Below, in pieces: positions 1 through 42,741 of a DNA stretch of 64,000 nucleotides. Location of the stretch: the sequence record NZ_CP019224.1; one strand, given 5' to 3'. The DNA comes from a plasmid. Below the pieces are notes generated by a model. That model saw nothing but the letters and a program-made list of their open reading frames with translations, was not told where the DNA came from and ran no database searches. Made by a program: the position numbers and the translations under genes. The stretch's first letter is position 1. Every line of letters begins with the position of its first letter.

Positions 1-682
1 CGGTGTGTTGGGCGGCGGCGATCATGGCGTCACGCACGGCGACGTCGGCGGTGATGGCGATGCCGGCGCGGGTCGGTAGCGTGCGACTGATCTGGTGTCC
101 CTCGAGTGCGGCGGCGATCTCTGCTGCGGCACCGATGACAAGCTCGCCGTGGTCGCCGAGGGCGATCGGCGGGGCTGGCGGCAGGGGCGCGAATTCGGCT
201 TGGATGTCGCTGCGCGCCGGGCTGACTCGTTCACCGCCGAGCACCCGGTGCGCGGTGACCAGAGAGTCGGTGTAGGGGTAGGTGGGCCCGGTTGCGCCGG
301 TGTCGGGGTCGTACCACTGGCCTTCGGTGGTGACATCACGAGTCATCAGGCGGCGCAGCACTGGAATCCCGGCGGCGCGCAGCGCGTCGCTCAGGGCGTC
401 GAGGACGGTGACGGCATGCCATTCGTAGCTTTCGTCGCACACGGCCAGGAGCACGGCGGCGTGGTTAGTTTCGGGCCGCAGGTTGCATGTGGCCGGGAAG
501 TTGGTGGCTTGTTCGGCGCTGATCGTGACATCGAAGCGAATTGCGCTGCGGACCACCAGGTCGCTGGTGTGGGTGTCACGGTGCAGCATGTAGGCGACGA
601 CGCTGTTGGTGGGTGCGAAGCCCAGGAATGCTGCTGCGGCGGCAACGATGTCGGCTTCGGTGCGCAAGGCGGTGGTGGGCAT
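1..682 (-). CDS. hypothetical protein, N-terminal part only; C-terminus lies beyond the window start
   Basis: ATG at 682-680 sits at the same position relative to repeat A1 as the other cassette genes, with a GGAGAA RBS 8 nt upstream on the minus strand. The in-frame translation MPTTALRTEADIVAAAAFLGFAPTNSVVAYMLHRDTHTSDLVVRSAIRFDVTISAEQ... is protein-like and stays open to the window edge. It is absent from the ORF track because no stop codon falls in the window. Confidence 0.5.
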   Translation of the reverse strand, partial: MPTTALRTEADIVAAAAAFLGFAPTNSVVAYMLHRDTHTSDLVVRSAIRFDVTISAEQATNFPATCNLRPETNHAAVLLAVCDESYEWHAVTVLDALSDALRAAGIPVLRRLMTRDVTTEGQWYDPDTGATGPTYPYTDSLVTAHRVLGGERVSPARSDIQAEFAPLPPAPPIALGDHGELVIGAAAEIAAALEGHQISRTLPTRAGIAITADVAVRDAMIAAAQHT

Positions 683-1093
683 AGTGTTGTTCTCCGTTCT
701 GTGCGGTGAGTGGTGCGCCGGTCAGCGCTGGGGGAGTGGGCTAATCGGGTGAGGGTGGGCGGTCAACCCCGAAGAGTCCCGCGCCGAACGCAGCAGGGTT
801 TTCGGCCCGCGCTCGCCTGGCGCGATAGCGCCATCGGGCGAGCTGGCATAGGGCCGAAAAGGTCACTCGGCCTGCGTAGTTCGGTGTGGGCGTGGGTTGA
901 CCGGTCGGGCCCCCGGCCGATTAGACTGCGACCCCAGCTGACGGCAAACAAGGTGAGGGGCTACGGATTTGGTGGCCACCGGCAGGTGGCCAGTCCGGGC
1001 GCGCGGGGCGCGCCGGCACCTCAGCGGACCGGAAGAAAAAGGGGGGCCCGGCCAACCCCTCACGATGGGAGAAGTGGCCGGGCCCCGGGAATG
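683..1093 (-). repeat. structured intergenic cassette-boundary repeat, subtype A, copy A1 (about 411 bp)
   Basis: About 95% identical to 3038-3447 and 6181-6584. Same module order as the other copies: terminator, GC hairpins, covarying rod, RBS and start codon. Confidence 0.9.
1035..1088 (-). terminator. rho-independent terminator inside repeat A1 (minus strand)
   Basis: On the minus strand an 11-bp perfect stem gggcccggcca/tggccgggccc is followed by cccTTTTTcTT. It lies about 15-20 nt after the stop of gene 1104-1277. Confidence 0.55.
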
Positions 1094-1103
1094 GTGATAC
1101 GTG

Positions 1104-1277
1104 TCAGTCGATGTCGCAGGCGGCGTCGCGCAACGCCTCAAGTAGATCGACGTTCTCACCGAGAGTCATGGTGTCGTGCCCCCACTGGCTGTACGTGCCG
1201 GTGAGGGTGTCGATGTAGAACGGGATCTCAACGGTGCGGTTTTCGACACCGCGCGTGATGGTGCCCTCGATGATCAT
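1104..1277 (-). CDS. hypothetical small protein (57 aa)
   Basis: Start MIIEGTITRG at 1277 is preceded by an AAAGGAGA RBS. The upstream part of ORF 1104-1622 is Pro/Thr-rich junk. Confidence 0.5.
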   Translation of the reverse strand: MIIEGTITRGVENRTVEIPFYIDTLTGTYSQWGHDTMTLGENVDLLEALRDAACDID

Positions 1278-1311
1278 CGCGTATCTCCTTTCAGGGTGGG
1301 CGACTGCGGGT

Positions 1312-1770
1312 TTAGGCGCTCCGCCGATGGGCGGCGGGCAGGCTGATGCGGGTAATGCCCCACGGGGCGCGGTCGTAGCCAGAGAGCGCCTGGACCAACA
1401 TGTTCTGCAGCTCGCGGCAGAATGCGTAGGCCTCGGTGTGCTGCCAGTCCTTGGGTTCGCAGGCCTGATATTCGAAGCACTGCAACGCCTTGAGTACTTC
1501 GATGACCGACCAGCTGGTGTGCAGGGGCCGGGTGTAGCGGTACTCGTAGGGCTCGTGGATGGGGTTGTTGAAGTAGCAATAGTTGACCGAGGCGGTGTTG
1601 GCGTCGACGAGCATCTGGCCAACCTGGTCGAGGTTGTCGTCGGTGAGCTGGTTGACGCGGATCGGGTTGTCGAAGACCCAGGTCAGGTTGCCCAGCGGCC
1701 GGTGGAATCCTTGGTGGCCGGCCCACAGCAGGACGTTGATGTGTTCGGCTTCGACGACGTATGCGCTCAT
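1312..1770 (-). CDS. hypothetical protein (152 aa)
   Basis: ATG at 1770 lies immediately after repeat B1, with a GGAGAA RBS inside the repeat. Sequence MSAYVVEAEHINVLLWAGHQGFH.... The 55-aa N-terminal extension in the ORF track is a read-through of the repeat. Confidence 0.55.
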   Translation of the reverse strand: MSAYVVEAEHINVLLWAGHQGFHRPLGNLTWVFDNPIRVNQLTDDNLDQVGQMLVDANTASVNYCYFNNPIHEPYEYRYTRPLHTSWSVIEVLKALQCFEYQACEPKDWQHTEAYAFCRELQNMLVQALSGYDRAPWGITRISLPAAHRRSA

Positions 1771-2193
1771 TGGTGTGTTCTCCGTTTCGGATGGTGATGT
1801 GGTGCGCTGGTCAGCGCTGGGGTGCGGGTAAGCGGGTGAGGGTGGGCGGTCCACCCCGACGAGTCCCGCGGCGGGTGTTCGCCGGGTTTTGGGTCCGCGC
1901 TCGCCGGCGCGAAGCGCCCTTCGGCGAGCTGGCATTAGGACCCAAAACAGTCACTCGGCACGGCGAGGCCCGGTGTGGGCGTGGGTGGACCGGTCGGGGT
2001 CCCCACCCGCTTACCATGAGCGCCCCGCTGACGGCTTAAAAGGGTGAGGGGCTACGGATTTGGTGGCCACCGGCAGGTGGCCAGTCCGGTCGCGCGGGGC
2101 GCGCCGGCACCTCAGCGGACCGGAAGAAAAGGGGGGCCCGGCCACCCCCTCGTGGTGGGAGAGGCGGCCGGGCCCGGAGAGGTCCTTGGGTTA
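1771..2193 (-). repeat. structured intergenic cassette-boundary repeat, subtype B, copy B1 (about 423 bp)
   Basis: About 97% identical to 4920-5344 and to 7128-7444. It includes the stop codon and last two codons of the upstream gene at one end and the RBS at the other. Confidence 0.9.
2125..2178 (-). terminator. rho-independent terminator inside repeat B1
   Basis: GC stem ggcccggcc..ggccgggcc followed by a T-run on the minus strand, directly after the stop of gene 2191-2493. Confidence 0.5.
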
Positions 2194-2493
2194 GGTCAGG
2201 CCTGCCGCGCGGATGCGGTCGCGGATCAGCGCCAGGTCGACGCTCCGTTTTATTGGACTCACATAGTGACTGGCCCAATTTTCAAATCCGTTTATCGCGG
2301 CTTCCACTTCGCTTATTTGGACCTCAGGGCGGGTGATCGCGATTTCGTCCCCGTTCTCGCGGTCGTAGGCCTTGGCCACGACGGCGACAAGTTGTCCGAT
2401 TCCGTCGACAGTTTGTCGGAACCGCATCTTGCGGCGCTTGCCGTCGGCGGGGTCAATGAAGTACCAGCCTTGGCAGTAGTCGATGTCGGTCAT
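2191..2493 (-). CDS. hypothetical protein (100 aa)
   Basis: Internal start MTDIDYCQGWYFIDPADGKRRK at 2493 with an AAAGGA RBS 8 nt upstream. The upstream ORF portion is Pro-rich junk. Confidence 0.5.
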   Translation of the reverse strand: MTDIDYCQGWYFIDPADGKRRKMRFRQTVDGIGQLVAVVAKAYDRENGDEIAITRPEVQISEVEAAINGFENWASHYVSPIKRSVDLALIRDRIRAAGLT

Positions 2494-2575
2494 GTCGATC
2501 AGTCCTTTCTGGTCGGGATGGTACGCGGCCGGGCCGACGTTCACGTGTGACGCTGGCCCGGCCGCGAAAGTGGGG

Positions 2576-3037
2576 TTAGGCCGCCAGCAGGGCGGCGGCG
2601 GCAATGTGGTCGAGGGCGGTGTCGAGGTCCTCGTGGACGACGGAGGGTTGGTTGTCGACGGTGACGGTCCACATCGGCTGGTCGCCGATTCCGGCGGTCA
2701 GAGTGCAGGTGTGGCCGGCGTGGGCGGCGCGGTAGGACCAGTCGTGGCCGGGGACGGCGTGAAAGGTGAGTTCACTGGCGCGGACCTTGAGGATTCGGGT
2801 GTGCGGCTCGGTGTTGAGGTCAGGTGCGGTCGCCTCGACGGCGGCCATCTGACCGTGGGCATCGGTGGCGAACAGGACCAGGCGGTGCCCACTTTCGCGG
2901 GTGTAGTCATGCACGGTGGTGAGCCCGATGTCGCCGTGGTTGTGAAAGAGAATTCGGGTGATGCCGTACTGCTGGTCCTGGATGCGTCCTGCGGCCTCGT
3001 CGACGAGGTTGAAGGCGAGCTCGAATTCGTGATCCAT
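2576..3037 (-). CDS. hypothetical protein (153 aa)
   Basis: ATG at 3037 abuts repeat A2. Sequence MDHEFELAFNLVDEAAGRIQDQQYG.... Confidence 0.55.
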   Translation of the reverse strand: MDHEFELAFNLVDEAAGRIQDQQYGITRILFHNHGDIGLTTVHDYTRESGHRLVLFATDAHGQMAAVEATAPDLNTEPHTRILKVRASELTFHAVPGHDWSYRAAHAGHTCTLTAGIGDQPMWTVTVDNQPSVVHEDLDTALDHIAAAALLAA

Positions 3038-3447
3038 GATGTTTGTCCGTTCTGTGCGGTGAGTGGTGCGCCGGTCAGCGCTGGGGGAGTGGGCTAATCG
3101 GGTGAGGGTGGGCGGTCAACCCCGAAGAGTCCCGCGCCGAACGCAGCAGGGTTTTCGGCCCGCGCTCGCCTGGCGCGAAGCGCCATGGGGCGAGCTGGCA
3201 TAGGGCCGAAAAGGTCACTCGGCCTGCGTAGTTCGGTGTGGGCGTGGGTTGACCGGTCGGGGCCCCCGGCCGATTAGACTGCGACCCCAGCTGACGGCAA
3301 ACAAGGTGAGGGGCTACGGATTTGGTGGCCACCGCCAGGTGGCCAGTCCGGTCGCGCGGGGCGCGCCGGCACCTCAGCGGACCGGAAGAAAAAGGGGGGC
3401 CCGGCCAACCCCTCACGATGGGAGAAGTGGCCGGGCCCCGGGAATGA
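3038..3447 (-). repeat. structured intergenic cassette-boundary repeat, subtype A, copy A2
   Basis: Near-identical to A1 and A3. Rod closing helix 3074-3086 / 3285-3295. Confidence 0.9.
3387..3440 (-). terminator. rho-independent terminator inside repeat A2
   Basis: Stem gggcccggcca/tggccgggccc plus T-run on the minus strand, 20 nt after the TAA stop of 3459-4436. Confidence 0.55.
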
Positions 3448-3458
3448 TCTGAATGCCG

Positions 3459-4436
3459 TTATCCGTCAGTCATGGTGGTATCGCCGGCGGGGCGATGGCC
3501 GGAGATCTCGTGGTAGCCGATCCTGTCGGTCCACGAGGCCAGCTCGTGCCGGCGGACCGACACGGTTTTGGAGTTGACCCGAACCACGGGGTACCAGTGG
3601 CCGCGATACTTGATGAGGTCACCTTTGGTGATGCTGTCGCGGCTGTGCGGGTTGGCGGCGCCGGATGCTTGCAGATCCGCGTAAACCGCTTTCCAGTAGG
3701 CGATTTGATCGCCACGTTGGGCCATGCGCGCGATCACCTGTTCACGGTAGGACCCGGAGGCGGGGGCGAACTCGTCGACGTATTCGTAGGTGGCCGTGCG
3801 CGCGACGACGCGACGGTAACCATCGAGAATGCGTTGATCGCCACGTTGCTCGGCTTCCAACTTCTCGATGCGGTTCTTCACCGTCACCGGGTTGTAGCGG
3901 TGAGCGGTGGTGGTCGCGGCGGCCTGTGCGCGGCCCTGTGCCTGGTGGGCGAGATCGGTCGCGTCAATCGCGCGGCGGGTTGCGTCGTGGGCGCGGGTGA
4001 TCGCGTTACGGTGGCGGCTCTCGCTGTGATGGCCGATCTTGATCGGCTCTCCACCGGGAGGCAGGGCCTCTACGGCGCGCTGCTCGGATTCCCAGGCGGC
4101 CGAGGCGGCGGCGGCTTTGCGGTCGGCTTTGGCGGCCAGGGCGTCGGCGCGCTGCGCCTGGCGGTGAGCGCGGTCGGCTTCGGCCTCGGCTGTGGGGCGA
4201 TGAGTGTCGTCGACGTCGACAGTTACCGTGTGGCCGGCGGCGCGCAGCGATTCGGCGGCACGCTCGATTTTGTATCGGTTGGGTTGACGATCGCGGCTGC
4301 CGGCGATACCCCATACACCGAGTGTGCGAAACCAACGGAATCCGGCGGCTTTGAGGATGGTGTTGGTGCCGTCTCCGCGGGCGGTGCCGTGTACGAGGGT
4401 TCCTTCAGCGGCGGTGTGGGTGATTTCGATAGTCAT
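3459..4436 (-). CDS. hypothetical protein (325 aa), DUF3560-like, common on actinobacterial plasmids and phages
   Basis: Intact ORF MTIEITHTAAEGTLVHGTARGDGT... with an Ala/Arg-rich coiled central region. The family assignment is from memory, not a search. Confidence 0.55.
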   Translation of the reverse strand: MTIEITHTAAEGTLVHGTARGDGTNTILKAAGFRWFRTLGVWGIAGSRDRQPNRYKIERAAESLRAAGHTVTVDVDDTHRPTAEAEADRAHRQAQRADALAAKADRKAAAASAAWESEQRAVEALPPGGEPIKIGHHSESRHRNAITRAHDATRRAIDATDLAHQAQGRAQAAATTTAHRYNPVTVKNRIEKLEAEQRGDQRILDGYRRVVARTATYEYVDEFAPASGSYREQVIARMAQRGDQIAYWKAVYADLQASGAANPHSRDSITKGDLIKYRGHWYPVVRVNSKTVSVRRHELASWTDRIGYHEISGHRPAGDTTMTDG

Positions 4437-4556
4437 TGGTGTTGTGCTCCTGGTCTTTTCGGGTTGAGGGGTGGGGTTGTTGGGATGAAAAGAGCCCGGC
4501 CGGCTTCTGAGTGATGCGGAAACAGGCCGGGCCCCGAGTTCGTGGTGAGGGCGTTG

Positions 4557-4919
4557 TCACGCTGTGACGAGTTGTCGGTGCACGTTTCGGCTGGCGTTGC
4601 CTTGGGTCAACCCGAGTCGCGAGGCGACGCGTGCCACGGTCCGCGAGGTTGTGTGAAGGCGCCAGGCGATGAGCTCTGGGTCGATTCGGCCATACATGCG
4701 TCGCACGGCTTCGTCACGGTCTTTGCCGCGCAGCGGCAGGCGTAACCCGTCGTTGGCGACTTGCAGGACAGCAAGCTCGTCGACGTCGGCCATTCGGTCG
4801 TCTTCACGGTGCCGCTCGTGCCTGTGTGGGTCGTGTGCTGACGTCTCGGGGGAGGACAGTGCTTGGGCTTCGTCTGGGCCGGTGATGGCCCATGGGTCTG
4901 GGGTGCTGATAGTGGTCAT
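4557..4919 (-). CDS. hypothetical protein with C-terminal HTH (120 aa)
   Basis: ATG at 4919 abuts repeat B2. The C-terminus WRLHTTSRTVARVASRLGL has an HTH-like pattern. Confidence 0.5.
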   Translation of the reverse strand: MTTISTPDPWAITGPDEAQALSSPETSAHDPHRHERHREDDRMADVDELAVLQVANDGLRLPLRGKDRDEAVRRMYGRIDPELIAWRLHTTSRTVARVASRLGLTQGNASRNVHRQLVTA

Positions 4920-5344
4920 TGGTGTGTTCTCCGTTTCGGATGGTGATGTGGTGCGCTGGTCAGCGCTGGGGTGCGGGTAAGCGGGTGAGGGTGGGCGGTC
5001 CACCCCGACGAGTCCCGCGGCGGGTGTTCGCCGGGTTTTGGGTCCGCGCTCGCCGGCGCGAAGCGCCCTTCGGCGAGCTGGCATTAGGACCCAAAACAGT
5101 CACTCGGCACGGCGAGGCCCGGTGTGGGCGTGGGTGGACCGGTCGGGGTCCCCACCCGCTTACCATGAGCGCCCCGCTGACGGCTTAAAAAGGGTGAGGG
5201 GCTACGGATTTGGTGGCCACCGGCAGGTGGCCAGTCCGGTCGCGCGGGGCGCGCCGGCACCGTGTGAGCTGGAAGAAAAAGGGGGGGCCCGGCCAACCCC
5301 TCGTGGTGGGAGAGGCGGCCGGGCCCGGAGAGGTCCTTGGGTTA
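4920..5344 (-). repeat. structured intergenic cassette-boundary repeat, subtype B, copy B2
   Basis: Near-identical to B1. Rod closing helix 4959-4971 / 5172-5181. Includes the stop codon of 5342-5755. Confidence 0.9.
5274..5330 (-). terminator. rho-independent terminator inside repeat B2
   Basis: GC stem plus T-run on the minus strand after the stop of 5342-5755. Confidence 0.5.
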
Positions 5345-5755
5345 GTACGGGTGCAGCTCGGCGTTGACTTCAGCGGCGGCCTCGGCGACGTCGTTGAGCA
5401 GGTCGACTTCCGCTTCGTCGAGTCGAGCGACGTCGCAGGTGCTGTAGTTAGCGTGATCGAGGACCGCGCTGCGTTCTTCTCGCAGCGTGTGCAGTCGTTT
5501 GAGGGCCTGGTCGAGCTCAAGGCGGGGATGGGTTTCGCGGCGCACGTGCGCGATGACGTGGCCGAGGTAGTCGAGGATTTCGCGGCGACTTCCTTGCAGG
5601 GCGAGACCGTCGCCGTTTCCGTTCCACAGTCCCAGGACGAAGGGCCCGCTGACTGCATCTTCGTCCTCGGGGTGGAATTTCTCGATTGCCCGCTCGCGCG
5701 GGTGCAGGGTGTAGAGGCTGTCCGCGGCGTGGCCCCATTCGATGTGATTACTCAT
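5342..5755 (-). CDS. hypothetical protein (137 aa)
   Basis: Internal ATG at 5755 gives MSNHIEWGHAADSLYTLHPRERAIEKF.... The upstream ORF part is Arg/Pro junk. Confidence 0.5.
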   Translation of the reverse strand: MSNHIEWGHAADSLYTLHPRERAIEKFHPEDEDAVSGPFVLGLWNGNGDGLALQGSRREILDYLGHVIAHVRRETHPRLELDQALKRLHTLREERSAVLDHANYSTCDVARLDEAEVDLLNDVAEAAAEVNAELHPY

Positions 5756-5784
5756 GGTGGATGCCTTGTGTGAGGTAGGTGGTT

Positions 5785-6180
5785 TCAGGCGACGACGTGG
5801 GTCAGGTGCGCTTGGATGCGGTGGTCGAGTTTGAGAATCTCGATCATTGCCGGCGTCTCGGTGTGCTCGCGGCGGACCGCGACGTCGACGCGGGTGATGA
5901 TCGTGGCCGCGATGCCGGGATTGCCACCTTTGAGGGCGAACGCAGCGGCCAGGGTGAGGGCTTCGATTCGGGCCTGTCCGCTGAGGTGATCGCCGATACG
6001 GCCCCACAGCAGTGCGGCCCGTAGCGGCCGGCGCTCGGCGATCTTGTAGAGCAGGGTCTTATAGCTGTCGTCGACCAGGAGTGGGGCGGCGAGCTCGGCG
6101 AGGCCTCGGCTGGGGTTGCAGGTCCCGTTGACGAGTTGGTTACGCAGATCAGCCAGGATCGCGATGCGGTTGTAGCACAT
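5785..6180 (-). CDS. hypothetical protein (131 aa)
   Basis: ATG at 6180 abuts repeat A3. Sequence MCYNRIAILADLRNQLVNG.... Confidence 0.5.
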   Translation of the reverse strand: MCYNRIAILADLRNQLVNGTCNPSRGLAELAAPLLVDDSYKTLLYKIAERRPLRAALLWGRIGDHLSGQARIEALTLAAAFALKGGNPGIAATIITRVDVAVRREHTETPAMIEILKLDHRIQAHLTHVVA

Positions 6181-6584
6181 GATGTTTGTCCGTTCTGTGC
6201 GGTGATGTGGTGCGCTGGTCAGCGCTGGGGGAGTGGGCTAATCGGGTGAGGGTGGGCGGTCAACCCCGAAGAGTCCCGCGCCGAACGCAGCAGGGTTTTC
6301 GGCCCGCGCTCGCCTGGCGCGAAGCGCCATGGGGCGAGCTGGCATAGGGCCGAAAAGGTCACTGGGCCTGCGTAGTTCGGTGTGGGCGTGGGTTGACCGG
6401 TCGGGGCCCCCGGCCGATTAGACTGCGACCCCTGCTGACGGCAAATAAGGTGAGGGGCTACGGATTTGGTGGCCACCGGCAGGTGGCCAGTCCGGTCGCG
6501 CGGGGCGCGCCGGCACCTCAGCGGACCGGAAGAAAAGGGGGGCCCGGCCACCCCCCGATGGGAGAGGCGGCCGGGCCCGGAATG
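6181..6584 (-). repeat. structured intergenic cassette-boundary repeat, subtype A, copy A3
   Basis: Near-identical to A1 and A2, with small variation in the terminator loop. Confidence 0.9.
6531..6580 (-). terminator. rho-independent terminator inside repeat A3
   Basis: GC stem ggcccggcc/ggccgggcc plus T-run on the minus strand after the stop of 6588-7127. Confidence 0.5.
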
Positions 6585-6587
6585 TGT

Positions 6588-7127
6588 TCAGGCCGCTCGA
6601 TAGTCGGCGTCGGTGGGATCGGCTTTGTAGCGCTCACCGTCTGCGAAGACCGCGATCGCCACTCGGTGGACCTGTCGAAACGCGTCGATCATCGACAGGA
6701 TCGCGGCGCGGTCACGCAATTGCCAGGTGATCGGGCCGGTGTAGAGCTCGACCCAGTGCAGTTTCGCGGTCTTGAGCTTGTTGAGCGCCGACTGTGCCAC
6801 GACAGCGTAAGCCGGTGCCCTCGTCCACTCGACGCCGAGCACTGCGCGGCCGGCGGGCTCCTCGGCCACGGCTCCAGCGGTGGGGATTTCCGCGGGGACA
6901 TGGATCATCTGAGTGCGCGCAGCGACGAAGGCCTCGAGCAGGCCCTGGGCTGTCTGGCAGTTCTGCAGGCTCATGTGCATGCCGCCGACCGTGATGCCGA
7001 TACGGGCGGACGGGGTGCGGGCGTGGTGCACGGTGATGTCGGGTTCGAGCTGGCCTTTGATGGACACGATGCTGTGAGTAATGACGCCGGCCGGCGTGAC
7101 GTAAATGGGTGTGGCGGATTTCGTCAT
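6588..7127 (-). CDS. hypothetical protein (179 aa)
   Basis: ATG at 7127 abuts repeat B3. Sequence MTKSATPIYVTPAGVITHSIVSIKGQ.... Confidence 0.5.
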   Translation of the reverse strand: MTKSATPIYVTPAGVITHSIVSIKGQLEPDITVHHARTPSARIGITVGGMHMSLQNCQTAQGLLEAFVAARTQMIHVPAEIPTAGAVAEEPAGRAVLGVEWTRAPAYAVVAQSALNKLKTAKLHWVELYTGPITWQLRDRAAILSMIDAFRQVHRVAIAVFADGERYKADPTDADYRAA

Positions 7128-7444
7128 TGGTGTGTTCTCCGTTTCGGATGGTGATGTGGTGCGCTGGTCAGCGCTGGGGTGCGGGTAAGCGGGTGAGGGT
7201 GGGCGGTCCACCCCGACGAGTCCCGCGGCGGGTGTTCGCCGGGTTTTGGGTCCGCGCTCGCCGGCGCGAAGCGCCCTTCGGCGAGCTGGCATTAGGACCC
7301 AAAACAGTCACTCGGCACGGCGAGGCCCGGTGTGGGCGTGGGTGGACCGGTCGGGGTCCCCACCCGCTTACCATGAGCGCCCCGCTGACGGCTTAAAAGG
7401 GTGAGGGGCTACGGATTTGGTGGCCACCGGCAGGTGGCCAGTCC
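7128..7444 (-). repeat. structured cassette-boundary repeat, subtype B, copy B3, truncated
   Basis: Homology to B1/B2 ends abruptly after the tggccaccggcaggtggcca hairpin at about 7444. The GC hairpin and terminator modules are missing. Confidence 0.85.
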
Positions 7445-8506: not shown

Positions 8507-9796
8507 TCATGCAGACTCCTTCAACCGATCATGGCCAGCGTGTATCGCTGGCCTGCGTGTGTTGTTCCGGTAGTCAGTGGTGAGCTGCTCGAGGAGGGCA
8601 TCAATGGCGGCCGCCTCGGCGCGCTGCCTGGGTGAGGGCTGCTCGCCGATGTCGTGGTGCAGGTCTTGGTGGGTGTGTTGCACTGTGCGCAGTTGTTCGG
8701 CGGCTTCGGCGAGCCATCGTGCGGCGTTGCGTGCGCTGCCGGGTACCAGGCCGCGACGGTCCTGGTGCGCGCGGGCTTCCTGCAGGGCGACGTCGAAACG
8801 CTCGGCGGCCACCCGGGCTTTGGCGGCCGCGGCCAAGGTGTGCAGTTCGGCGGGCGTGATGACGGAAAGGCCTCCGAAAAGCTCGGCGCGGTTCCACAGG
8901 CCGGCGTTGACGTGATCGGTGACGTCGGCTTTGTCGACGTCGAGGGCGGGTAAGAGCACCACGACTTGGGCAGTGATGCTGCGTAGGCGTGCATAGAGGT
9001 TGATCGCCCGCTGATAACCGGCGAGGTCTCGGTCGGCGACGATGGCGACCTTGAGTCCGGCGAAGTCGTCGACGAGTTCGGCGGGGAAGTTGGCGGCTCC
9101 TTGGGCGTTGGTGGTGGCCAGCCGGCCGAGTGCAGTCAGGGTGTCGGCGTCTTTTTCACCTTCGGTGACCCATATCCATGCGCCGCGTGTGGCTGCGGCC
9201 GCAATTGCGGCGGGCCGGTATAACACCGGGGTGAATCCGTACGGCTTGCGGTACACCCACTGGCCTCCGTCGCGGTAGCGCTGCCGGAACTGTTTGTGGG
9301 GTCGACCAGTGCATGCGCATTCTTCGCGGACGACCTGCTGCACCGGGGTTCCCGTGGGGGTCAGGTAGGTGTAGACCCGGGCCCGGCGCCAGTGGTGGTT
9401 GGTGTCTTCGCGCCCCGCGGTGATGCGTGCGGGTAACGGCCCTGGCCCAGGAGTTCGCCTGGCCCTGGGCTGCGTGACGCGAGGCCAGCGTTGCCCGGTT
9501 GCGGGGCTGGGGTTGTCGAACAGATCGGCCAGGCGCAGACCCAGTGCGGCCGCGATGGCGGCCGCGGGGGCTTGGCAGCTAAAGCAGTGCAGCAGGACCG
9601 CACCGCCAGTGCCGGCGCGGGTGTTTTCTCGCCACCCAACCGACAGCGAGGGGCAGTGGTCGGTGTGCAGGGGGCAGCTGGCCATGAAGGCCTCCGAACC
9701 ACGCGGGCGGATGGCGTGCCCCGCTGCTTGCAGGGCGTCCCGCACGTGGTCCAAAGCGGCTCCGGGACTGTGGAGTTGGTGTGCGCTCGCCATCAC
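8507..9796 (-). CDS. DNA primase, CHC2 zinc finger plus Toprim domain (plasmid/phage type)
   Basis: CPLHTDHCPSLSV...CFSC zinc-binding motif, then Toprim WVTEGEKDADTL and IVADRDLAG. Confidence 0.7.
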   Translation of the reverse strand: MMASAHQLHSPGAALDHVRDALQAAGHAIRPRGSEAFMASCPLHTDHCPSLSVGWRENTRAGTGGAVLLHCFSCQAPAAAIAAALGLRLADLFDNPSPATGQRWPRVTQPRARRTPGPGPLPARITAGREDTNHHWRRARVYTYLTPTGTPVQQVVREECACTGRPHKQFRQRYRDGGQWVYRKPYGFTPVLYRPAAIAAAATRGAWIWVTEGEKDADTLTALGRLATTNAQGAANFPAELVDDFAGLKVAIVADRDLAGYQRAINLYARLRSITAQVVVLLPALDVDKADVTDHVNAGLWNRAELFGGLSVITPAELHTLAAAAKARVAAERFDVALQEARAHQDRRGLVPGSARNAARWLAEAAEQLRTVQHTHQDLHHDIGEQPSPRQRAEAAAIDALLEQLTTDYRNNTRRPAIHAGHDRLKESA

Positions 9797-10785: not shown

Positions 10786-10980
10786 TTGCCCTTCTGGCAT
10801 TGGGGATATAGACCGGCCCGCGGGTCGTGGAATGCAAGGCCCGGGCGCGAAGTTTTCCCAGTGAGCGCCAGCGAGCGGCTTGGGGAAAAGTTCGCGAGCC
10901 ACCGGCCCGCAGCAGCGCGGAGGCCGGCGCCTTGCAAGTAGCGACCCGGCCGGTCAGAATCGAAAGCCCAGAAGGCAGAA
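10786..10980. repeat. inverted-repeat-flanked element of about 195 bp, copy 1 (downstream of the parB-like gene)
   Basis: Termini ttgcccttctggca ... gcccagaaggcag are inverted. About 70% identical to 12814-13003. Confidence 0.7.
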
Positions 10981-11116: not shown

Positions 11117-12763
11117 CTACTCCTTTACCGCATCAGCCAAGTACTGCTCATACACCTCGTCGGTGCTTTTGGCCTTGGTCACGACTTCCTCGACGGGAGC
11201 CAGCGGATAGTCGTTGTCGGCGAGCCAGCGCAGGTACTCAGCGCCGCCGACGTGATGGCCCCACCAGCCGCTGTTGTTGCGCCAAGCATCCTTGGGGGTG
11301 CGCGATTCGAGCGCACCGAGAATCAGGCCCAGCGTGATCACCTGCGCGCGTGCGTCGCCGTTGGCGGGTAGCTCGGCCACGAGCTTGGCCACGGCCTGGC
11401 CGCTGTCGAGTCCGAGCAGTTCGGCGGTGGTGTCCAGCGCGTTGTTGTTCGTGAGCAACGCACTGTCACGGGCCAAGCAGTCCGCCACGAAGAGACCGGC
11501 GCCCTTGGGAGGTGTCTTTCGCGCCAACAGCTTCTTGACGAAATCACGCCGCACGCCAAGGGCCGCATCACCGAGCTTGTTGAGCGCCAACACTTTACGG
11601 CGCTCACGCTTTTCGGTCTCGGCCCGCTCGATCGCCGCCTGCTGGCGTGCGGCTTCGCGGGCCTCGTCGTCCAGGTCGACTGCTTCGCCGGTGTCGGTGT
11701 CCACCAGCCCGGCTTGCCGCGCGAACCAGCTCTGCGGCGTCAGACCGGCGGCGCGGTAGTCGAGGCAGTAGTAATCGGGAGTGAACACCTGCGCCTCGGT
11801 GACCGTGTTGGCGTGGCGCATCCCCTCTGCGGGTGTGGCGTCCGGCTGATCCTCGGTCTCCCAGTCCACGCTCTCTTCGTCAATCACTTCACCGGTTTCC
11901 ACGTCGCACCATGCGGTGTCCTCAACGAGCAACACAGCCCAATGGGCGGGGTGCGTCACCGCGTCGTCGTCGGCTTCCTCCCCGTCAGCGGTCACCAGGT
12001 GATGCAGCGGGATGCAAGCCGGGTCCCACGAATCCGGGCGCTGCTCAAGGAGAGTGAACCCCTTGTCGGCGTAGGCCGGGGCCACTTGGGCGCGGGCCTC
12101 GTCAGTGGCACGTTGCTGGCGCAGTTGGGCGACCGTGTGCTCGAACCAGCCGCTGTCAGCCGCACTCATCAGCCGCTCAACGGCACCGGGCATGTCCTCA
12201 AACTCGGTGATCGCCGCCGCTTCGACCAGGCTCAGCTGGCCACTAGCCAGCGCATCCATGGCCGTCGCCGACCGCGAGGCCGTGTGGGCGGCCTTCACAG
12301 CGTCCTTGCCCACAGACAGCTTCTTGGCCACCTTGGTCACCGACATCCCCGCATCGATCATCTGCTGGATACCGCGCGCCCGTTGCGCGTCGGTGATGTC
12401 GAGCTTTTGATCGTTGGTGACGATCTGGTGCACGATGCGGTCGATGGTTTCCTGGGTGGCATCGGCAGCAGTGGACGGCAGCACATAGACGGGGACGCTG
12501 GATAATCCCGCTTCGCGGGCAGCAAGAGTGCGCCGCTGTCCGTTGCGGACACGGATGACCTCGGGCCGTTCCGCGTCGCGGACAGCCGTAATCGGCACCA
12601 GGACGCCATTTTCGGCGATGTTGGCGATGAACGCCTTGCTCAGCGCGGCATCGTCGCGAACATTGTCACCAATGTCGAGCAACGCCGGATCAAGGTGTTC
12701 CAAGGTGCCGATCGGCTGGTCAGTGGCATTGCCCGCAGTGTCGGTGCTGGTGATGTCGGTCAT
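11117..12763 (-). CDS. ParB/Srx-domain protein (548 aa), KorB/ParB-like
   Basis: N-terminal ParB box VRNGQRRTLAAREAGLSSVPVYVL, with a long acidic C-terminal extension. Confidence 0.7.
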   Translation of the reverse strand: MTDITSTDTAGNATDQPIGTLEHLDPALLDIGDNVRDDAALSKAFIANIAENGVLVPITAVRDAERPEVIRVRNGQRRTLAAREAGLSSVPVYVLPSTAADATQETIDRIVHQIVTNDQKLDITDAQRARGIQQMIDAGMSVTKVAKKLSVGKDAVKAAHTASRSATAMDALASGQLSLVEAAAITEFEDMPGAVERLMSAADSGWFEHTVAQLRQQRATDEARAQVAPAYADKGFTLLEQRPDSWDPACIPLHHLVTADGEEADDDAVTHPAHWAVLLVEDTAWCDVETGEVIDEESVDWETEDQPDATPAEGMRHANTVTEAQVFTPDYYCLDYRAAGLTPQSWFARQAGLVDTDTGEAVDLDDEAREAARQQAAIERAETEKRERRKVLALNKLGDAALGVRRDFVKKLLARKTPPKGAGLFVADCLARDSALLTNNNALDTTAELLGLDSGQAVAKLVAELPANGDARAQVITLGLILGALESRTPKDAWRNNSGWWGHHVGGAEYLRWLADNDYPLAPVEEVVTKAKSTDEVYEQYLADAVKE

Positions 12764-12813
12764 GGTTGAACCTTTCTGGGTGGGTCAGGCGTCCGCATGG
12801 CCGCCTGTTCTGT

Positions 12814-13003
12814 TTGCCTTCTGGCAATTGAGATTTGGGCCGGCATAGGGACGCGGAGTGCAAGGTCCGGGCGCACAGTTGGCCGCCGCGAGCGAAGCGA
12901 GCGTGCCGGGGAACTGTGCGAGCCTTGTGCCCGAAGCGAAGCGCAGGCCGTGGCCTTGACGCGAAGCGGACCGCCGGCATAATCGAAAGCCAGAAAGGCA
13001 AAC
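12814..13003. repeat. inverted-repeat-flanked element, copy 2 (immediately upstream of the parB-like gene)
   Basis: Termini ttgccttctggcaa ... gccagaaaggcaa. Carries internal cgaagcg iterations. Confidence 0.7.
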
Positions 13004-13339
13004 AAACATGGGCTTGGGCAAGGCCCAAGCCATTCAGCAGCGCCGCAGGCGCTTCAACTTCAATTCCCCGCTACCATCGCAAAAATGCGGCTTGTGCAGA
13101 CCCGGCGCGGGTGGGAAGAACACCGCCCGTCGCACTGTCCGGAATGCGGCGCGCAACTCGGAGCGCACCAGGTGCTCGTTGGCATAGCACACTGCCGTTG
13201 CGAACGACGAATGCACCGCTCACACCGTTGCCAGCACTGCCAGTACACGATTTACACGCCGTCCCTTGGTGATTCGTGCACGCTGCAAGCTCTTGATGGA
13301 CGTTAAAGGCGGCGCCGGAATGTCTTAATTGCCCAACGC

Positions 13340-13670: not shown

Positions 13671-14771
13671 TTATTGCGTCGAATCTGCGGGCGAGGCCGC
13701 TGGGCGATCGCCGTCGCCCTCGACTGTGGGAGCGAGTAGTTCATAGAGTGGGTTTTGCGCGGCGGCCGAGCGGGTTTCAGAGCCAGCGGCGGTGACGTAG
13801 CGTTGCGAGGTGGCCATGGATTCATGGCCTAGCAGCTTCATGAGGGTGTAGACGCTGATGTTGGCGCCGGCGAGCTCGGTGGCGTAGGTGTGCCGGAGCG
13901 CGTGAACCATCGCGCCGGGGGTGCGCTGGGCGTCGGGCCCGGCCAGGTTGAATGCGCGCAGCACACGGTATTGCAAAGCGCCGCGGGTGATTCGGGCGCC
14001 ATCGCGGCCGACGAACAGAGCCGCGCTGGCTGGCCACTGTGGCCGCGGATTTTGGCCCGATCGCCCGCGGGTGGTGGCGGGGAAGCGGGCCGCCCGGGTG
14101 GTGAGGTAGCTGTTGAGGACGTCGACGAGGGCTTGTTCGATAGGAACTGAACGGTGCTTGCCGCCTTTTCCGCGTACCCGAAGGACCCCACCGCCGTCGC
14201 TGAGACGTAGGTCGCCGATGTTGGCGCCCCGGAGCTCGGCCGCGCGCAGCCCGGCCAGCAGGGCCGTCAAGATGATGGCGCGGTCGCGCTCGGGCCAGTC
14301 GGTCGCGCGTTTGTTGGCCGCCGGCGCCTCTATCGCGGTGATGAGTGCTTCAGCGGCCTCGGCGGGAAGTGATCGGGGAAGGGCCTTGGCCGGTTTGGGT
14401 TGGCCGATCACCTGCATAGGATTTCCGGGGAGCAGTTCGGTGGTGTAGAGGTAGGTGCACAAGGTGTTCCATGTCGACCAGCAGCGGCGGATCGAGGCTG
14501 CTTCGTGGGAGCCAGCGTAGGCCGCAAAGGCTTGGCGCAGCGCATCTTTGGTGAGGTCAAGCGGGTCGAGCCTTGACAGGTCTTGTCCTGGGTCGGCGCC
14601 GGTGATGGCGCTGGCGATCGCGTCGAAGTCTTGTCGGTAGGCCTGCAGGGTGTGCGGCGATGGCTTGCGGGTAGCGCGGTCGGTGAGGAATGCGCGGAAC
14701 CAGCTAGGTCGTTGGGCATCAGTGCGTCCACGGCTCGGGCTCGGGGTCCGTGGACGTGTTTCACCCGCCAC
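13671..14771 (-). CDS. tyrosine recombinase/integrase (XerC/D-like)
   Basis: N-terminal SAM-like HTLQAYRQDFDAIA. Catalytic region has LRAAELRGANIGDL, GKGGKHRSVPI, HALRHTYATEL, and LLGHESMATSQRY with the catalytic Tyr. Confidence 0.85.
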   Translation of the reverse strand: MAGETRPRTPSPSRGRTDAQRPSWFRAFLTDRATRKPSPHTLQAYRQDFDAIASAITGADPGQDLSRLDPLDLTKDALRQAFAAYAGSHEAASIRRCWSTWNTLCTYLYTTELLPGNPMQVIGQPKPAKALPRSLPAEAAEALITAIEAPAANKRATDWPERDRAIILTALLAGLRAAELRGANIGDLRLSDGGGVLRVRGKGGKHRSVPIEQALVDVLNSYLTTRAARFPATTRGRSGQNPRPQWPASAALFVGRDGARITRGALQYRVLRAFNLAGPDAQRTPGAMVHALRHTYATELAGANISVYTLMKLLGHESMATSQRYVTAAGSETRSAAAQNPLYELLAPTVEGDGDRPAASPADSTQ

Positions 14772-17564: not shown

Positions 17565-17822
17565 TCAGTAGTGGTATCGGGCTTTGAGGATCTTGATTTC
17601 GTGATCATCTGCGCGGTAGACGATCCGGTGTTCGTCGTCGATGCGCCGCGACCAGTACCCGGATAGTTCACCCTTGAGCGGTTCTGGTTTTCCAATCCCA
17701 GCAAACGGGTTGCGCTGGATTTCTGCGATGAGTCTGGTGATGCGCCGTGCTGTTTTGCGGTCGGAAGCCAGCCAAAATAGAAAGTCCTCCCACGCGGCGG
17801 GATCGAAGTTGATGCTTCTCAC
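17565..17822 (-). CDS. yoeB: YoeB/Txe-family type II toxin (85 aa)
   Basis: [67 protein letters not shown] is a classic YoeB. GTG start overlaps the yefM stop in GTGA. Confidence 0.8.
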
Positions 17823-18103
17823 TCCTGGCCGCCGGCCATCTCCTCGAGTTCGTCGATCGACTTGGTGTAGCTGCCGGGGGTGGGCCGGGTGGCGTTGTCT
17901 CGGGCGACGGCCTCCATGAGTCGGCGGGCATTCTCGGGGGAACGCAGGAGGTAGACCGTTTCTTGCCACGAATCGTAGTCAGCGGCCGACATGAGCACTG
18001 CATCTCCGGCCTTGGACGTAATTCGCACAGGCTCGTGGTCGGTGTTGACTTGTTCAAGCAGCGGAAAGAGGCGCTGCCGGGCCTCACTTGCACTGATAGC
18101 CAT
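17819..18103 (-). CDS. yefM: YefM/Phd-family antitoxin (94 aa)
   Basis: [53 protein letters not shown]. Confidence 0.8.
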
Positions 18104-18184
18104 GACCTCGGCCCTTCCAACCGTACCAATACCCAGTACCGTTATTGTACGGCATTATCGTACGGCGTTTGGGGTTCGTGTGCC

Positions 18185-18946
18185 TCAGGGCGAGGTCTTC
18201 TTGAGAGGCGGAAGAAAGACGTCCAAGGCAGCAGCGACCATTTCAGACCTGTTGGTTTCGCGTGTTCCGGGGCGCTGTTTGGCGATGCGAGCGCTGGCCC
18301 AGTCGGTAAGGGTCTTCATGACTGCAAGTTCGCCTTTGGTCGGGCGGATGCGTACCGGGAGGGGTGTGTCCTGGGACGTGCGGCCCGGGGCTTCACGGAA
18401 GGGGAAGAGGTCGCCGGGTTTTGGGCCGGGTCGGCGGTTGAGGATGAGCGTTGGAAGTTCCTGGGCATGTGCGCGGAGCGCATCGAGCACGAGGGCTGTG
18501 TGACTGGGGGCGTGGGCGCGGGCGCGTTCGAACCGTTTGACGATCGAGGCCGGGATGCTCAGGACAGTCGGCGAAACGATGTGGGCGGTGGGGTCGTCAG
18601 GATCGATGTCCAGTGTTGGCATCGCGCCGGGGTCACTGTCAGCCTTGTCGTGCGAGACATCTTCGATGGCGTCGTTTTCTGCCGTGGCGCGGTCGTGTGA
18701 TTCGGCCGCCGGCTGGGATTCTGCTGGCGCTGTGGCTTGCGGCTCGGCTGGGGGCGGTGAGGGCGTTGGTGCAGGCGGAGTCGCCGCCGTGGTGGTGGTG
18801 GTGTCGCTACGGCCGTCCTGGGCGGTGAGTGGTTGATCGAGCGCTTCGGCCGCCCCGAGCTTGGGGTGGCGCGGCTGGGGGGCTTGGCGGGTGCGGCGAG
18901 CGCGACGCTCGTGGAGTTGATGGATACCGCCGAGGTTGTCGCTCAT
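18185..18946 (-). CDS. ParA-partner protein, putative centromere-binding/adaptor (253 aa)
   Basis: ATG 18946 is 2 nt after the parA stop. It has an acidic/Pro-Thr-rich linker and a conserved C-terminal domain. No ParB box. Confidence 0.45.
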   Translation of the reverse strand: MSDNLGGIHQLHERRARRTRQAPQPRHPKLGAAEALDQPLTAQDGRSDTTTTTAATPPAPTPSPPPAEPQATAPAESQPAAESHDRATAENDAIEDVSHDKADSDPGAMPTLDIDPDDPTAHIVSPTVLSIPASIVKRFERARAHAPSHTALVLDALRAHAQELPTLILNRRPGPKPGDLFPFREAPGRTSQDTPLPVRIRPTKGELAVMKTLTDWASARIAKQRPGTRETNRSEMVAAALDVFLPPLKKTSP

Positions 18947-21449: not shown

Positions 21450-22970
21450 ATGGGCTTATTTGACGTCTTCGATGACCTGTTGGATGACCTGACGGGCATA
21501 TTCGACGGGGATGATGATGGCGGGGACGGCGGCGATGATGGGCCACCCGAGCAGTGGGGGCCGGGTCCGCTGCCCAACGCAGGCCCGCCGTGGGGGCCGG
21601 CGCCGCAAGTTCCCAACGGCCCCAGTGGTTTACAGCAGGGCGTCGATCAGGCCGGAACCACCTATCAGCAGGCGAGCGGGGCGGTGAATCAGACGGATGA
21701 CAAGCTATCTGACCTGCTGAAACAGATCTTCGCCGCCAATGATGCGGCCCGGTCGAAAATTAGTGGGATCGTGGGCAACATTGAGACAGCGCGCCGCGCG
21801 CTGGCGGCGAACCCACAGATGGCCAATGATCCGCACGCGATGGCGTTGTTCAACCAATTCTTGGATGGTCAGCTGGCCGAGATTCAACAGGTTCTGGACA
21901 GCTCGAAGGTCGATAGCAAAAAACAGGCTGAGTTGCTGGCCGCCCTGGGTGATGAGTACCGCGGTACCGCGGGTGGGGATCATCCGAAGAAAAAGGGCGC
22001 AGGTGGGGCGAACGGCGGCGGCGGTGATGGCGGCAACGGTGACACGGGCGGTAACACCACTGACGGCGGCGGTGGCGGTGGTGATGGCGGCAGCGGTGGT
22101 GGTGATGGCGGGGGCGCCGGTGGGGGCGGAACCCCTACGGGCAGTGGGGGATTGACCGACCCGTTGGCGGGCTTGGGGGGAGCGGGCATGGGTGATCCGC
22201 TGTCGATGTTGGGTCCTGCGATGGCGGGTCTGGGTTCGATTCCGGGCGCCTTGGGTGGGGCGGCAGGCTCACTGCCGATGGACGCCCTGGGCGGCCTGGG
22301 CGGCCTGAGTGGGCTTGCCGGTCAGGGCGGTGGAGACGGGTTTAAAGACACCGGCGCTCACGATCACGGCAAGTCCGACGATTTCGAAGACGGCCCGCAC
22401 GGCAAGGGTGACAGTGATGGCGGGAAAAACAATGACGGGGCGGCTGGTAAGGACGACACCGGCAGCAAGAACGGGCAGACTCAGCCCGCGGGGACGACGC
22501 AGCCTGCGCCGAGCACCCAGCCTGCCCCGCCGGCCGCGGTCCCGGCCAGTGCGGGTGGTGACCCAAGCCAGGTGGTGCAGATGCCGGACGGTTCTCCGGT
22601 GACGGCAACAACGGCCCAACACGCCGCGGCGGTGCGTGGGGTCCTCAACGGGCAGACCGTCACTGATGCCTGGAAGCAGGCTCATGTGGAGCTGCCGCCT
22701 CCAGGTACACCGGTGACCGCTCCGGCCGACCCGAGTCATTTGGTGCCCGGTGAAATCGCGCAATTTAAGAGTCGTGACCCGGTGATGTACATGGGTAATG
22801 GCAAAATCTGGCTGGATGGGCAGCTACAACCACAAAGTGCCCTGCCGACAGGTGATTTTTCGGGCTGGATCGACCCACCTGGGCTGGCGGGTACTCCCGC
22901 TGCGCCGCCTGCGCCGGGCAGCCCTGCTCCGGCGGGCCAGCCGACGACAACGAATACCAGCGGTACCTAA
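21450..22970 (+). CDS. Asp/Gly-rich protein with N-terminal helical (DUF4226-like) domain (506 aa); possible ESX-associated secreted protein
   Basis: MGLFDVFDDLLDDLTGIFDGDDDGGDGG..., then a helical region YQQASGAVNQTDDKLSDLLKQIFAANDAARSK... resembling the N-domains of 45863/46901/48090, then Gly-rich and Pro/Thr-rich regions. Confidence 0.55.
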   Translation: MGLFDVFDDLLDDLTGIFDGDDDGGDGGDDGPPEQWGPGPLPNAGPPWGPAPQVPNGPSGLQQGVDQAGTTYQQASGAVNQTDDKLSDLLKQIFAANDAARSKISGIVGNIETARRALAANPQMANDPHAMALFNQFLDGQLAEIQQVLDSSKVDSKKQAELLAALGDEYRGTAGGDHPKKKGAGGANGGGGDGGNGDTGGNTTDGGGGGGDGGSGGGDGGGAGGGGTPTGSGGLTDPLAGLGGAGMGDPLSMLGPAMAGLGSIPGALGGAAGSLPMDALGGLGGLSGLAGQGGGDGFKDTGAHDHGKSDDFEDGPHGKGDSDGGKNNDGAAGKDDTGSKNGQTQPAGTTQPAPSTQPAPPAAVPASAGGDPSQVVQMPDGSPVTATTAQHAAAVRGVLNGQTVTDAWKQAHVELPPPGTPVTAPADPSHLVPGEIAQFKSRDPVMYMGNGKIWLDGQLQPQSALPTGDFSGWIDPPGLAGTPAAPPAPGSPAPAGQPTTTNTSGT

Positions 22971-23312
22971 ATGTGGGGCCTTGATGCGGGAGTCGCGGTG
23001 ACCGACGAACAGCTGCCAGAGGAAGGTGCCATTCCCACTGTCGCGGAGTGGTCGGCCGACGGCGCCTTGATGGTCGCGGTCGACTGGCAAGGGGAGGGGC
23101 TGCAGGTCCAGCTCGAACCCGAGGTCACCCGGTCGTGGACCGCAGAGATACTGGCGGATCGGATTATGCGTCTGCACCGGTTGGCGTTGATGCGGGCCCG
23201 CGCCGAACAGCGCCAGCGTGTCATCGAGGAATACGGCACAGCGCTGCCGACGACCCCGGGGTGGCCCAGTTTGACCGACGTCGACGAATACCGGCACACG
23301 ATCGATTTTTAG
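22971..23312 (+). CDS. hypothetical protein (113 aa)
   Basis: ATG overlaps the upstream stop in TAAATG. No motif. Confidence 0.4.
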   Translation: MWGLDAGVAVTDEQLPEEGAIPTVAEWSADGALMVAVDWQGEGLQVQLEPEVTRSWTAEILADRIMRLHRLALMRARAEQRQRVIEEYGTALPTTPGWPSLTDVDEYRHTIDF

Positions 23313-42740: not shown

Positions 42741-42741
42741 A

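Follow-up and report, generated by a model that had tools for sequence, protein, structure and literature searches.

The stretch of 64,000 nucleotides of plasmid record NZ_CP019224.1 that was analysed here (the window) carries near its left end an array of small minus-strand genes punctuated by six copies of an element of about 410 bp, and this element is probably a composite expression module built on a single-stranded DNA (ssDNA) promoter and belonging to the leading region of a mycobacterial plasmid whose conjugation depends on a relaxase. The six copies of the original prediction are confirmed, all of them oriented like the minus-strand genes and in register; they belong to two subtypes, A and B, which share about 78% identity with each other and 95-100% within each subtype. 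In gene orientation a full copy consists of an intrinsic terminator, a GC hairpin (GCGCG-GGG-CGCGC), a perfect 20-nt hairpin (TGGCCACC-N4-GGTGGCCA), the invariant motif CCGTAGCCCCTCACC, an imperfect palindrome of 227-228 nt (the rod), and a leader of about 45 nt with a Shine-Dalgarno (SD) sequence and the ATG. This is the order of modules that had been proposed (terminator, GC hairpin, 20-nt hairpin, rod, ribosome-binding site (RBS) and ATG), with the exception of the truncated copy B3, from which the terminator and the GC hairpin are missing. An independent terminator scanner called a minus-strand intrinsic terminator at each of the five full copies. Instead of inverted repeats, the element has a stop codon at one end and an RBS at the other, and the type B copies include the stop codon of the upstream gene, as had been noted, since their conserved sequence starts there (CTAACCCAAGG...). 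A hidden Markov model (HMM) of the six copies found none elsewhere in the window outside the array.

The strand that folds is the + strand, namely the template strand of the cargo genes, antisense to their mRNA, and the earlier description of the rod is to be corrected on this point. Against dinucleotide shuffles, with DNA parameters, rod folding gave z -8.1 for A1 and -7.0 for B1; for A1 the + strand (dG, folding free energy, -83.4) compares with dG -68.1 and z -4.9 for the sense strand. The + strand is the stabler one in every copy, with RNA or DNA parameters alike, because the 7-10 G:T wobbles of its rod become A:C mismatches on the mRNA-sense strand. The same was found for 40/40 distinct rods of a smaller set and then for the template-like strand in 122/122 distinct near-full-length rods (mean ddG -12.8 kcal/mol), in which G:T pairs numbered 1078 on the template-like strand vs 177 on the other. 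In an alignment of 36 distinct rods the consensus structure comprises 49 pairs, of which 19 show compensatory double changes, and its cells hold 1522 Watson-Crick, 198 G:T and 5 A:C combinations, where the regional base skew alone would lead one to expect G:T and A:C in a ratio of only about 2:1. Paired cells made up 97.6% vs 90.9% in shuffles, double-change pairs numbered 19 vs 9.9 (0/500 shuffles reached 19), and slid-structure controls were paired at 36-53%.

Because the structure has been selected on the strand antisense to mRNA, a 5' untranslated region (5'UTR) or an mRNA-processing structure was rejected. The wider RNA-level explanation, be it a structured 5'UTR, a polycistronic processing site, a switch like EGeRS1 of plasmid pLS20, or a small antisense RNA started by a + strand promoter in the duplex, is very improbable. 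It would account for the leader-like place of the element between terminator and RBS, EGeRS1 is formally similar, and the + strand sequence TTGACC-N19/20-TANNNT might conceivably work as a promoter in the duplex; however, in the rod of an mRNA the roughly 200 alignment cells with G:T on the + strand would become A:C mismatches, the sense strand is the less stable one in 122/122 rods, and RNA from the + strand promoter would start at the rod base and exclude the rod. No conserved + strand promoter occurs to the left of the rod, and a search of the whole window with Rfam 15 at the gathering threshold gave 0 matches.

The 3' arm of the + strand hairpin runs from loop to base, which is the direction of RNA polymerase if the 5' arm serves as template, and then into the downstream gene, and it carries TTGACC...TAGACT in type A and TGGACC...TACCAT in type B. 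Across the 122 rods the -35 begins with T (122), T or G (117 and 5) and G (122), followed by variable positions, and lies inside a perfect helix of about 10 bp. The -10 reads T or C (80 and 42), A (122), three variable positions and T (122), in 12 different hexamers. The partner of -12 is always Watson-Crick and covaries with it (T:A in 80, C:G in 42), A-11 is invariant and faces C, G or a gap in 103/122, and T-7, invariant as well, never faces A. The template-arm spacer measures 17 nt in 120/122, and in 117/122 an SD and a start codon lie downstream at a short, constant distance. In sigma-70-family promoters the -12 position is read as duplex, the non-template A-11 and T-7 are flipped into sigma pockets, and the mycobacterial -10 consensus is TANNNT. 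Judged by this pattern, the hairpin is a pre-melted fork-junction promoter, predicted to be present only in the single-stranded + strand. A recognition rule independent of homology may be drawn from it: -12 paired and covarying, A-11 and T-7 invariant and unpaired, template-arm spacer 17 nt.

The sequence GGTGAGGG has 19 sites in the window (including 748, 952, 1835 and 2043), all on the + strand, with 3.8 expected, and each element has two of them, one inside the spacer of the template arm and one inside the invariant motif of the 3' flank. The small flanking hairpins are strand-neutral in their pairing (G:T 120 vs 108). In 109 flanks from related loci, the loop of the 20-nt hairpin on the template strand is GCA, GGCA, GCCA or GACA in most variants, and the stem covaries between plasmid lineages. 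Loops of this G...A kind resemble the stable GNA/GNNA loops of DNA.

An explanation by duplex-DNA regulatory repeats would have a divergent conventional promoter and a plasmid repressor bound to the palindromes, with transient expression in a recipient that lacks the repressor; Reg576 of p576 and the CUP/ArdK-ArdR regulon of pKM101 are precedents of the repressor type (PMC6294495). The strand neutrality of the 20-nt and GC palindromes agrees with it, as do their covariation by plasmid lineage, to be expected of operators co-evolving with a repressor, and an HTH (helix-turn-helix)-like protein in the cargo. However, the sense-strand hexamer opposite the -10 matches [T/C]ANNNT in 0/122 copies, and a consensus scan of the 7.1-kb array found 0 duplex promoters of sigma-70 type on either strand, with 0.5 expected. 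The rod, its covariation, the strand asymmetry and the invariant unpaired A-11/T-7 on the antisense arm would also be left unexplained, and such repeats are an unlikely substitute for the ssDNA promoter, beside which duplex repressor control could form a second layer.

By its sequence, the window is part of a mycobacterial conjugative plasmid of the pRAW/pMyong1 type. A megablast search with the array matched 27 records, mycobacterial plasmids only, while a phage origin was rejected with 0 matches among 50,697 phage records. Outside the array, the window shares 97.7% identity with the ESX/type VII region of pMyong1 and related plasmids, with genes for EccB, EccC, EccD, MycP and PPE proteins; pRAW has been proved conjugative by experiment and carries a relaxase and components of a type IV secretion system (PMC4173767). 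In pMyong1, pMAH135, pRAW, pMSPYR101 and pMchErm55 the distance between the array and the start of mobF is 1-4 kb, and the array genes share the orientation of mobF, with transcription running towards it; pJCM12603 has the same array, its mobF lying outside the stretch examined. The sister plasmids share a layout in which a mobF of about 5.8 kb is followed, in most of them, by two small divergent genes and then by a run of genes co-oriented with mobF (DUF3846, DUF932, DUF4192, DUF3560, an HTH protein and many small genes, with gaps of about 400 bp between); pMSPYR101 is the exception, with a mobF of 2.8 kb and insertion sequence (IS) elements between mobF and the array. Beyond the array, the sisters have protease/toprim-primase/NrdH and ParB-N-domain operons. 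The window begins within the DUF4192 gene, and the array therefore extends to the left of it. In 7 replicons the HMM found 44 copies, all gene-oriented and all in the array.

Judged by gene order, this position of the array is that of leading-region geometry. Relaxase genes are typically found in the lagging region adjoining the origin of transfer, oriT (PMC11541004), and because of this MOBF gene-order rule and the co-orientation of mobF and array, as in F, we infer that the + strand is the transferred strand (T-strand). The best-conserved block of the intergenic region upstream of mobF is GTGACCTGAGTGCAAGAGGTGTG on the + strand (pMyong1 9160-9200, aligned with pMAH135, pRAW and pMchErm55); with the short inverted repeat TTAGG-N3-CCTAA ahead of it, the block is a candidate for the core of oriT. 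An F-like nic core (GGTGT|GGTG) was not used as evidence, the 9-mer being common in these G-rich sequences. In pMyong1 and pMAH135, GGTGAGGG follows a candidate nic-like sequence upstream of mobF. The hyper-conjugative transposon insertions of pRAW, at bp 58,664 and 58,700 (PMC4173767), are by coordinates far from the array (109-114 kb).

Hairpins of about 200 nt, unrelated in sequence to those described above, occur in the leading block's two other large intergenic gaps; in both, the 3' arm of the + strand has its -35 within a perfect helix and its -10 within a mismatch bubble. At equivalent positions in sister plasmids and genome contigs 20 copies of this second class were found, with the template-like strand stabler in 19/20, and TTGNNN-16/17-CA[C/T/G]AAT is kept where the pattern was detected. 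To judge from these features, the second class follows the same logic ahead of other leading operons.

Leading regions with ssDNA promoters are known from enterobacterial plasmids. Early expression from F depends in vivo on Frpo1/2 (PMC9849209), and in pESBL six leading operons each have a large hairpin ssDNA promoter, in 3 unrelated classes, with starts confirmed by 5' rapid amplification of cDNA ends (PMC12672017). The mycobacterial element is like the Frpo/ssi/ssp elements (F Frpo1/2 and ssp2/3, ColIb-P9 ssi1-3, pESBL classes 1-3) in its place in the leading region on the oriT/relaxase side, in the large imperfect hairpins of the template strand that rebuild a -35 and -10 directed into the downstream operon, and in having several copies and sequence classes per plasmid, one per operon, ahead of small genes mostly without known function. 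In contrast to them, it comes from another phylum, has a G+C content of 66% and a -10 of the TANNNT form, occurs in up to 16 copies per plasmid, and, being longer and composite, includes a terminator of its own, two further hairpins, the invariant motif and a fixed leader/RBS. No sequence similarity to the IncF and IncI1 elements appeared in the blastn search of PLSDB described below, assuming that PLSDB holds plasmids of both groups. The large survey of leading regions, carried out as a similarity search with five enterobacterial sequences, does not mention actinobacteria (PMC11541004), and neither does a 2026 codon-usage study.

Two other systems share the punctuated layout. EGeRS1 of pLS20 comprises structured repeats of 420-750 bp before five establishment operons (PMC8708921), and the mycobacterial element is like EGeRS1 of the pLS20 family (Bacillus) as a conserved structured repeat (400-750 bp) directly upstream of the RBS of an establishment operon, without a regular duplex promoter, with read-through blocked (in the mycobacterial case predicted from the terminators) and with cargo that varies between related plasmids. 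Unlike EGeRS1, its folding strand is the template, with a clear -35 and -10, and no Bacillus plasmid was matched in PLSDB. In the leading region of pKM101 (IncN) seven establishment units are each preceded by a conserved CUP repeat of >400 bp (PMC6294495). Variable cargo and conserved punctuation on a MOBF plasmid are common to both; the CUP repeat, however, is thought to be a duplex promoter/operator for ArdK/ArdR and has no sequence similarity to the element.

According to the mechanism proposed here, the + strand would be nicked near mobF and transferred with the array entering the recipient first, and host RNA polymerase with sigma-A would transcribe each cassette once its hairpin enters. 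Complementary-strand synthesis would then destroy the hairpin and switch the genes off, leaving a transient burst of expression (zygotic induction), while the terminator with which each element begins would stop transcription from the preceding cassette and insulate the units. The very stable rod, together with the GC hairpins situated 3' to it on the template strand, might, more speculatively, delay complementary-strand synthesis or serve as priming sites; the polymerase of the complementary strand would reach the flank hairpins before the rod. That the elements are single-strand initiation or roadblock sites only (like ssi/sso), which prime or pace this synthesis with expression coming from elsewhere, is decidedly unlikely. 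Frpo is known to prime DNA synthesis and ssp2 of F to stall or delay conversion (PMC12672017; bioRxiv 10.64898/2026.01.09.698686), the leading region also contains a gene resembling a toprim primase, and the rods are extremely stable; but the fixed short distance to the SD and start codon (117/122) and the terminator ahead would be needless for priming alone, so that priming or roadblock is more likely an additional function than an alternative.

Several points weigh against the ssDNA promoter. The MOBF gene-order rule is the single basis for the polarity of the transferred strand, and the F-like nic core upstream of mobF in pMyong1 and pMAH135 is not conserved in pRAW and pMchErm55. The region has an overall GC skew of +0.16 to +0.19, and the G:T excess could arise partly from C-to-T mutation bias on an often single-stranded strand. 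The non-template spacer measures 19-20 nt, i.e., it has a 2-3-nt bulge, and C stands at -12 in 42/122 copies. Searches of Pfam, PHROGs, NCBIfam and structures gave no recognisable anti-defence function among the cargo, and the DUF3560 gene lies behind a terminator-like hairpin without a rod of its own. Finally, EGeRS1, for all its formal similarity, was judged unlikely to be an ssDNA promoter because the T-strand of pLS20 is the non-template strand and no promoter was found in the fold (PMC8708921).

A blastn search (word 11) with the element in 72,556 PLSDB plasmids matched only Mycobacterium, Mycolicibacterium and Mycobacteroides, at 182 places in 33 records, with up to 16 copies per plasmid in about 30 species, and the conservation beyond this replicon that had been looked for is thus found. 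A 21-mer scan for the rod in one genome per species added 57 loci, essentially all from Mycobacteriaceae, and the 190 copies in 64 sources are gene-oriented, never on both strands of one locus. The same scan matched a 4-kb contig of Mesorhizobium qingshengii and a metagenome-assembled genome of Solirubrobacterales, both probably contamination or mis-binning, and a chromosome-sized contig of M. interjectum (4.99 Mb), possibly an integrated copy. The PLSDB matches being limited to Mycobacteriaceae genera, the element stands outside any described sequence family; it is annotated in none of the 33 records, most of which have no annotated feature beneath the match, and the literature search found no paper describing it or ssDNA promoters in mycobacteria or other actinobacteria. 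The original prediction was right in this sense that it is not a described element, but its kind is known, namely the ssDNA promoters of leading regions.

The strict alternation of A and B, also proposed, holds within the window (by chance, with 3+3 copies, its probability is about 0.1) and not as a rule. Alternation as a design rule, for example against recombination between neighbours, was rejected because other plasmids have adjacent near-identical copies: pMAH135 has five in a row, and in Mycolicibacterium plasmids the copy types follow in the order J K J K L L L M K K. The idea of conserved punctuation and variable cargo has been borne out, since the cargo differs between plasmids at the element boundaries, whole cassettes differ among relatives, and the Mycolicibacterium plasmids have mostly different genes between their copies. 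Among close relatives gene order is collinear, the differences being simple presence or absence of a cassette. Thus, DUF3560 is present in the window plasmid and pMAH135 and absent from pMyong1 (local alignment across this indel recovered the shared element only), and the 137-aa gene is unique to the window plasmid. Pfam, PHROGs and NCBIfam gave the cargo only DUFs and no recognised function, and sequence searches of the PDB gave no matches. An acidic isoelectric point (4.1-5.8) is shared by six of the ten proteins encoded in the array from DUF4192 to the 179-aa gene. The most widespread cargo is the 153-aa protein, with 119 relatives, all mycobacterial; its structure model (pLDDT 90) had no significant structural match (best E 0.12).

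The cassette-like layout had suggested an integron or cassette array. A recombination or mobile system, in the form of integron-like cassettes with giant attC-like ssDNA sites or of a repeat of the MITE (miniature inverted-repeat transposable element) type, has next to no probability. Small variable genes of one orientation do lie between imperfect palindromes, attC sites also act as folded single strands, and a tyrosine recombinase gene, the only one of the window (13671-14771), lies 6 kb away; its product, however, is XerC/D-like and not IntI, with 162 bits to XerC and 32 bits to the integron-integrase model, for which the cut-off is 265 bits. The attC core GTTRRRY has 95 matches vs 80 expected, not placed at element boundaries, and attC sites (about 57-141 bp, cores RYYYAAC/GTTRRRY) are 3-7 times smaller than the 410-bp elements. 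There is no common Pc, each unit having its own terminator and predicted promoter, so that the analogy fails on integrase, core sites and expression logic. As for an IS or MITE, no terminal inverted repeats and no target duplications were found, gene order is collinear in relatives, and the 190 copies keep one orientation and occur only in the leading array.

Gain and loss of cassettes between plasmids could proceed via recombination of the direct repeats. A further reading, conceivable but doubtful, is that the elements are plug-and-play cassettes independent of a recombinase, each combining a terminator/insulator, roadblock or priming hairpins that keep the region single-stranded, an ssDNA promoter and a leader/RBS, with cargo shuffled by the direct repeats. 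This would be an integron-like logic built on ssDNA transcription, and the array would serve mycobacterial conjugative plasmids as a rapidly evolving stock of as many as 16 establishment or anti-defence genes for early expression.

Table. Coordinates of the elements, their modules, the cargo genes and the second-class hairpins in the window
Feature	Coordinates	Strand	Remarks
Element A1, whole	683..1103	-	upstream of DUF4192 gene
A1 rod	718..944	+	long imperfect hairpin of + (template) strand; dG -83.4, z -8.1
A1 -35	897..902	+	TTGACC; non-template (3') arm, inside perfect 10-bp helix
A1 -10	922..927	+	TAGACT; non-template arm
A1 flank	952..1013	+	invariant motif GGTGAGGGGCTACGG (952-966), 20-nt hairpin (973-992), GC hairpin (1001-1013)
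A1 intrinsic terminator	1037..1086	-	for upstream cassette; stem and T-run
Element B1, whole	1771..2193	-	includes TAA stop of upstream gene
B1 rod	1807..2034	+	z -7.0
B1 -35	1986..1991	+	TGGACC
B1 -10	2012..2017	+	TACCAT
B1 flank	2043..2104	+	motif, 20-nt hairpin (2064-2083), GC hairpin (2092-2104)
B1 terminator	2127..2175	-	
Element A2, whole	3038..3458	-	
A2 rod	3071..3297	+	-35 TTGACC (3249-3254), -10 TAGACT (3275-3280)
A2 flank	3305..3366	+	motif, 20-nt hairpin (3326-3345), GC hairpin (3354-3366)
A2 terminator	3390..3439	-	
Element B2, whole	4920..5344	-	
B2 rod	4956..5183	+	-35 TGGACC (5135-5140), -10 TACCAT (5161-5166)
B2 flank	5193..5254	+	motif, 20-nt hairpin (5214-5233), GC hairpin (5242-5254)
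B2 terminator	5277..5326	-	
Element A3, whole	6181..6587	-	
A3 rod	6215..6441	+	-35 TTGACC (6393-6398), -10 TAGACT (6419-6424)
A3 flank	6449..6510	+	motif, 20-nt hairpin (6470-6489), GC hairpin (6498-6510)
A3 terminator	6533..6578	-	
Element B3	7128..7444	-	truncated
B3 rod	7164..7391	+	-35 TGGACC (7343-7348), -10 TACCAT (7369-7374); motif 7400-7414; 20-nt hairpin 7421-7440
Cargo, DUF4192 gene	2..682	-	5' part, runs off the window
Cargo cassette 1	1104..1770	-	152-aa (1312-1770) and 57-aa (1104-1277) proteins
Cargo cassette 2	2191..3037	-	153-aa orphan (2576-3037) and 100-aa protein (2191-2493)
Cargo cassette 3	3459..4919	-	120-aa HTH-like (4557-4919), terminator-only spacer (4437-4556), DUF3560 (3459-4436)
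Cargo cassette 4	5342..6180	-	131-aa (5785-6180) and 137-aa (5342-5755) proteins
Cargo cassette 5	6588..7127	-	179-aa protein
Second-class hairpin promoter (predicted)	10786..10980	+	TTGCAA-17-CAGAAT (3' arm); upstream of nrdH / 97-aa / toprim-primase / protease operon
Second-class hairpin promoter (predicted)	12806..13008	+	TTGACG-16-CATAAT; upstream of 548-aa ParB-N-domain gene

Outside the array, the minus strand of the window encodes at 28017-29924 a 635-aa protein made of eight HA (helicase-associated) domain repeats, and a TnpB/IS605 OrfB-type gene and a Mutator-family transposase (41090-42829, 43442-44797) lie between the plasmid backbone and the ESX locus. The single tRNA called by ARAGORN, a tRNA-Val(GAC) at 38837-38918, far from the array and inside a 774-aa open reading frame (37726-40050) without Pfam match, is probably a false positive. 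In pMSPYR101 (M. gilvum) three IS110-family transposase genes with the identical protein WP_006247666.1 lie within the leading-region array, at 11653-12858, 17683-18888 and 21801-23006 of the pMSPYR101 sequence examined.

If the proposed reading is true, these would be, as far as the literature search shows, the first ssDNA promoters in Actinomycetota, and transcription of the incoming strand before its replication would be a general strategy of relaxase-type conjugation and not an enterobacterial speciality. The module might also be used as a transfer-triggered expression device for conjugative delivery. The elements would also mark several dozen orphan gene families as genes that pRAW-type plasmids express early, for establishment or anti-defence. 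Plasmids of this type, one of which is the erm(55) macrolide-resistance plasmid, are carried by M. avium, M. intracellulare, M. marinum and M. chelonae, and pRAW itself is transferable to M. tuberculosis (PMC4173767). This repertoire may be relevant to the barriers to gene flow among mycobacteria.

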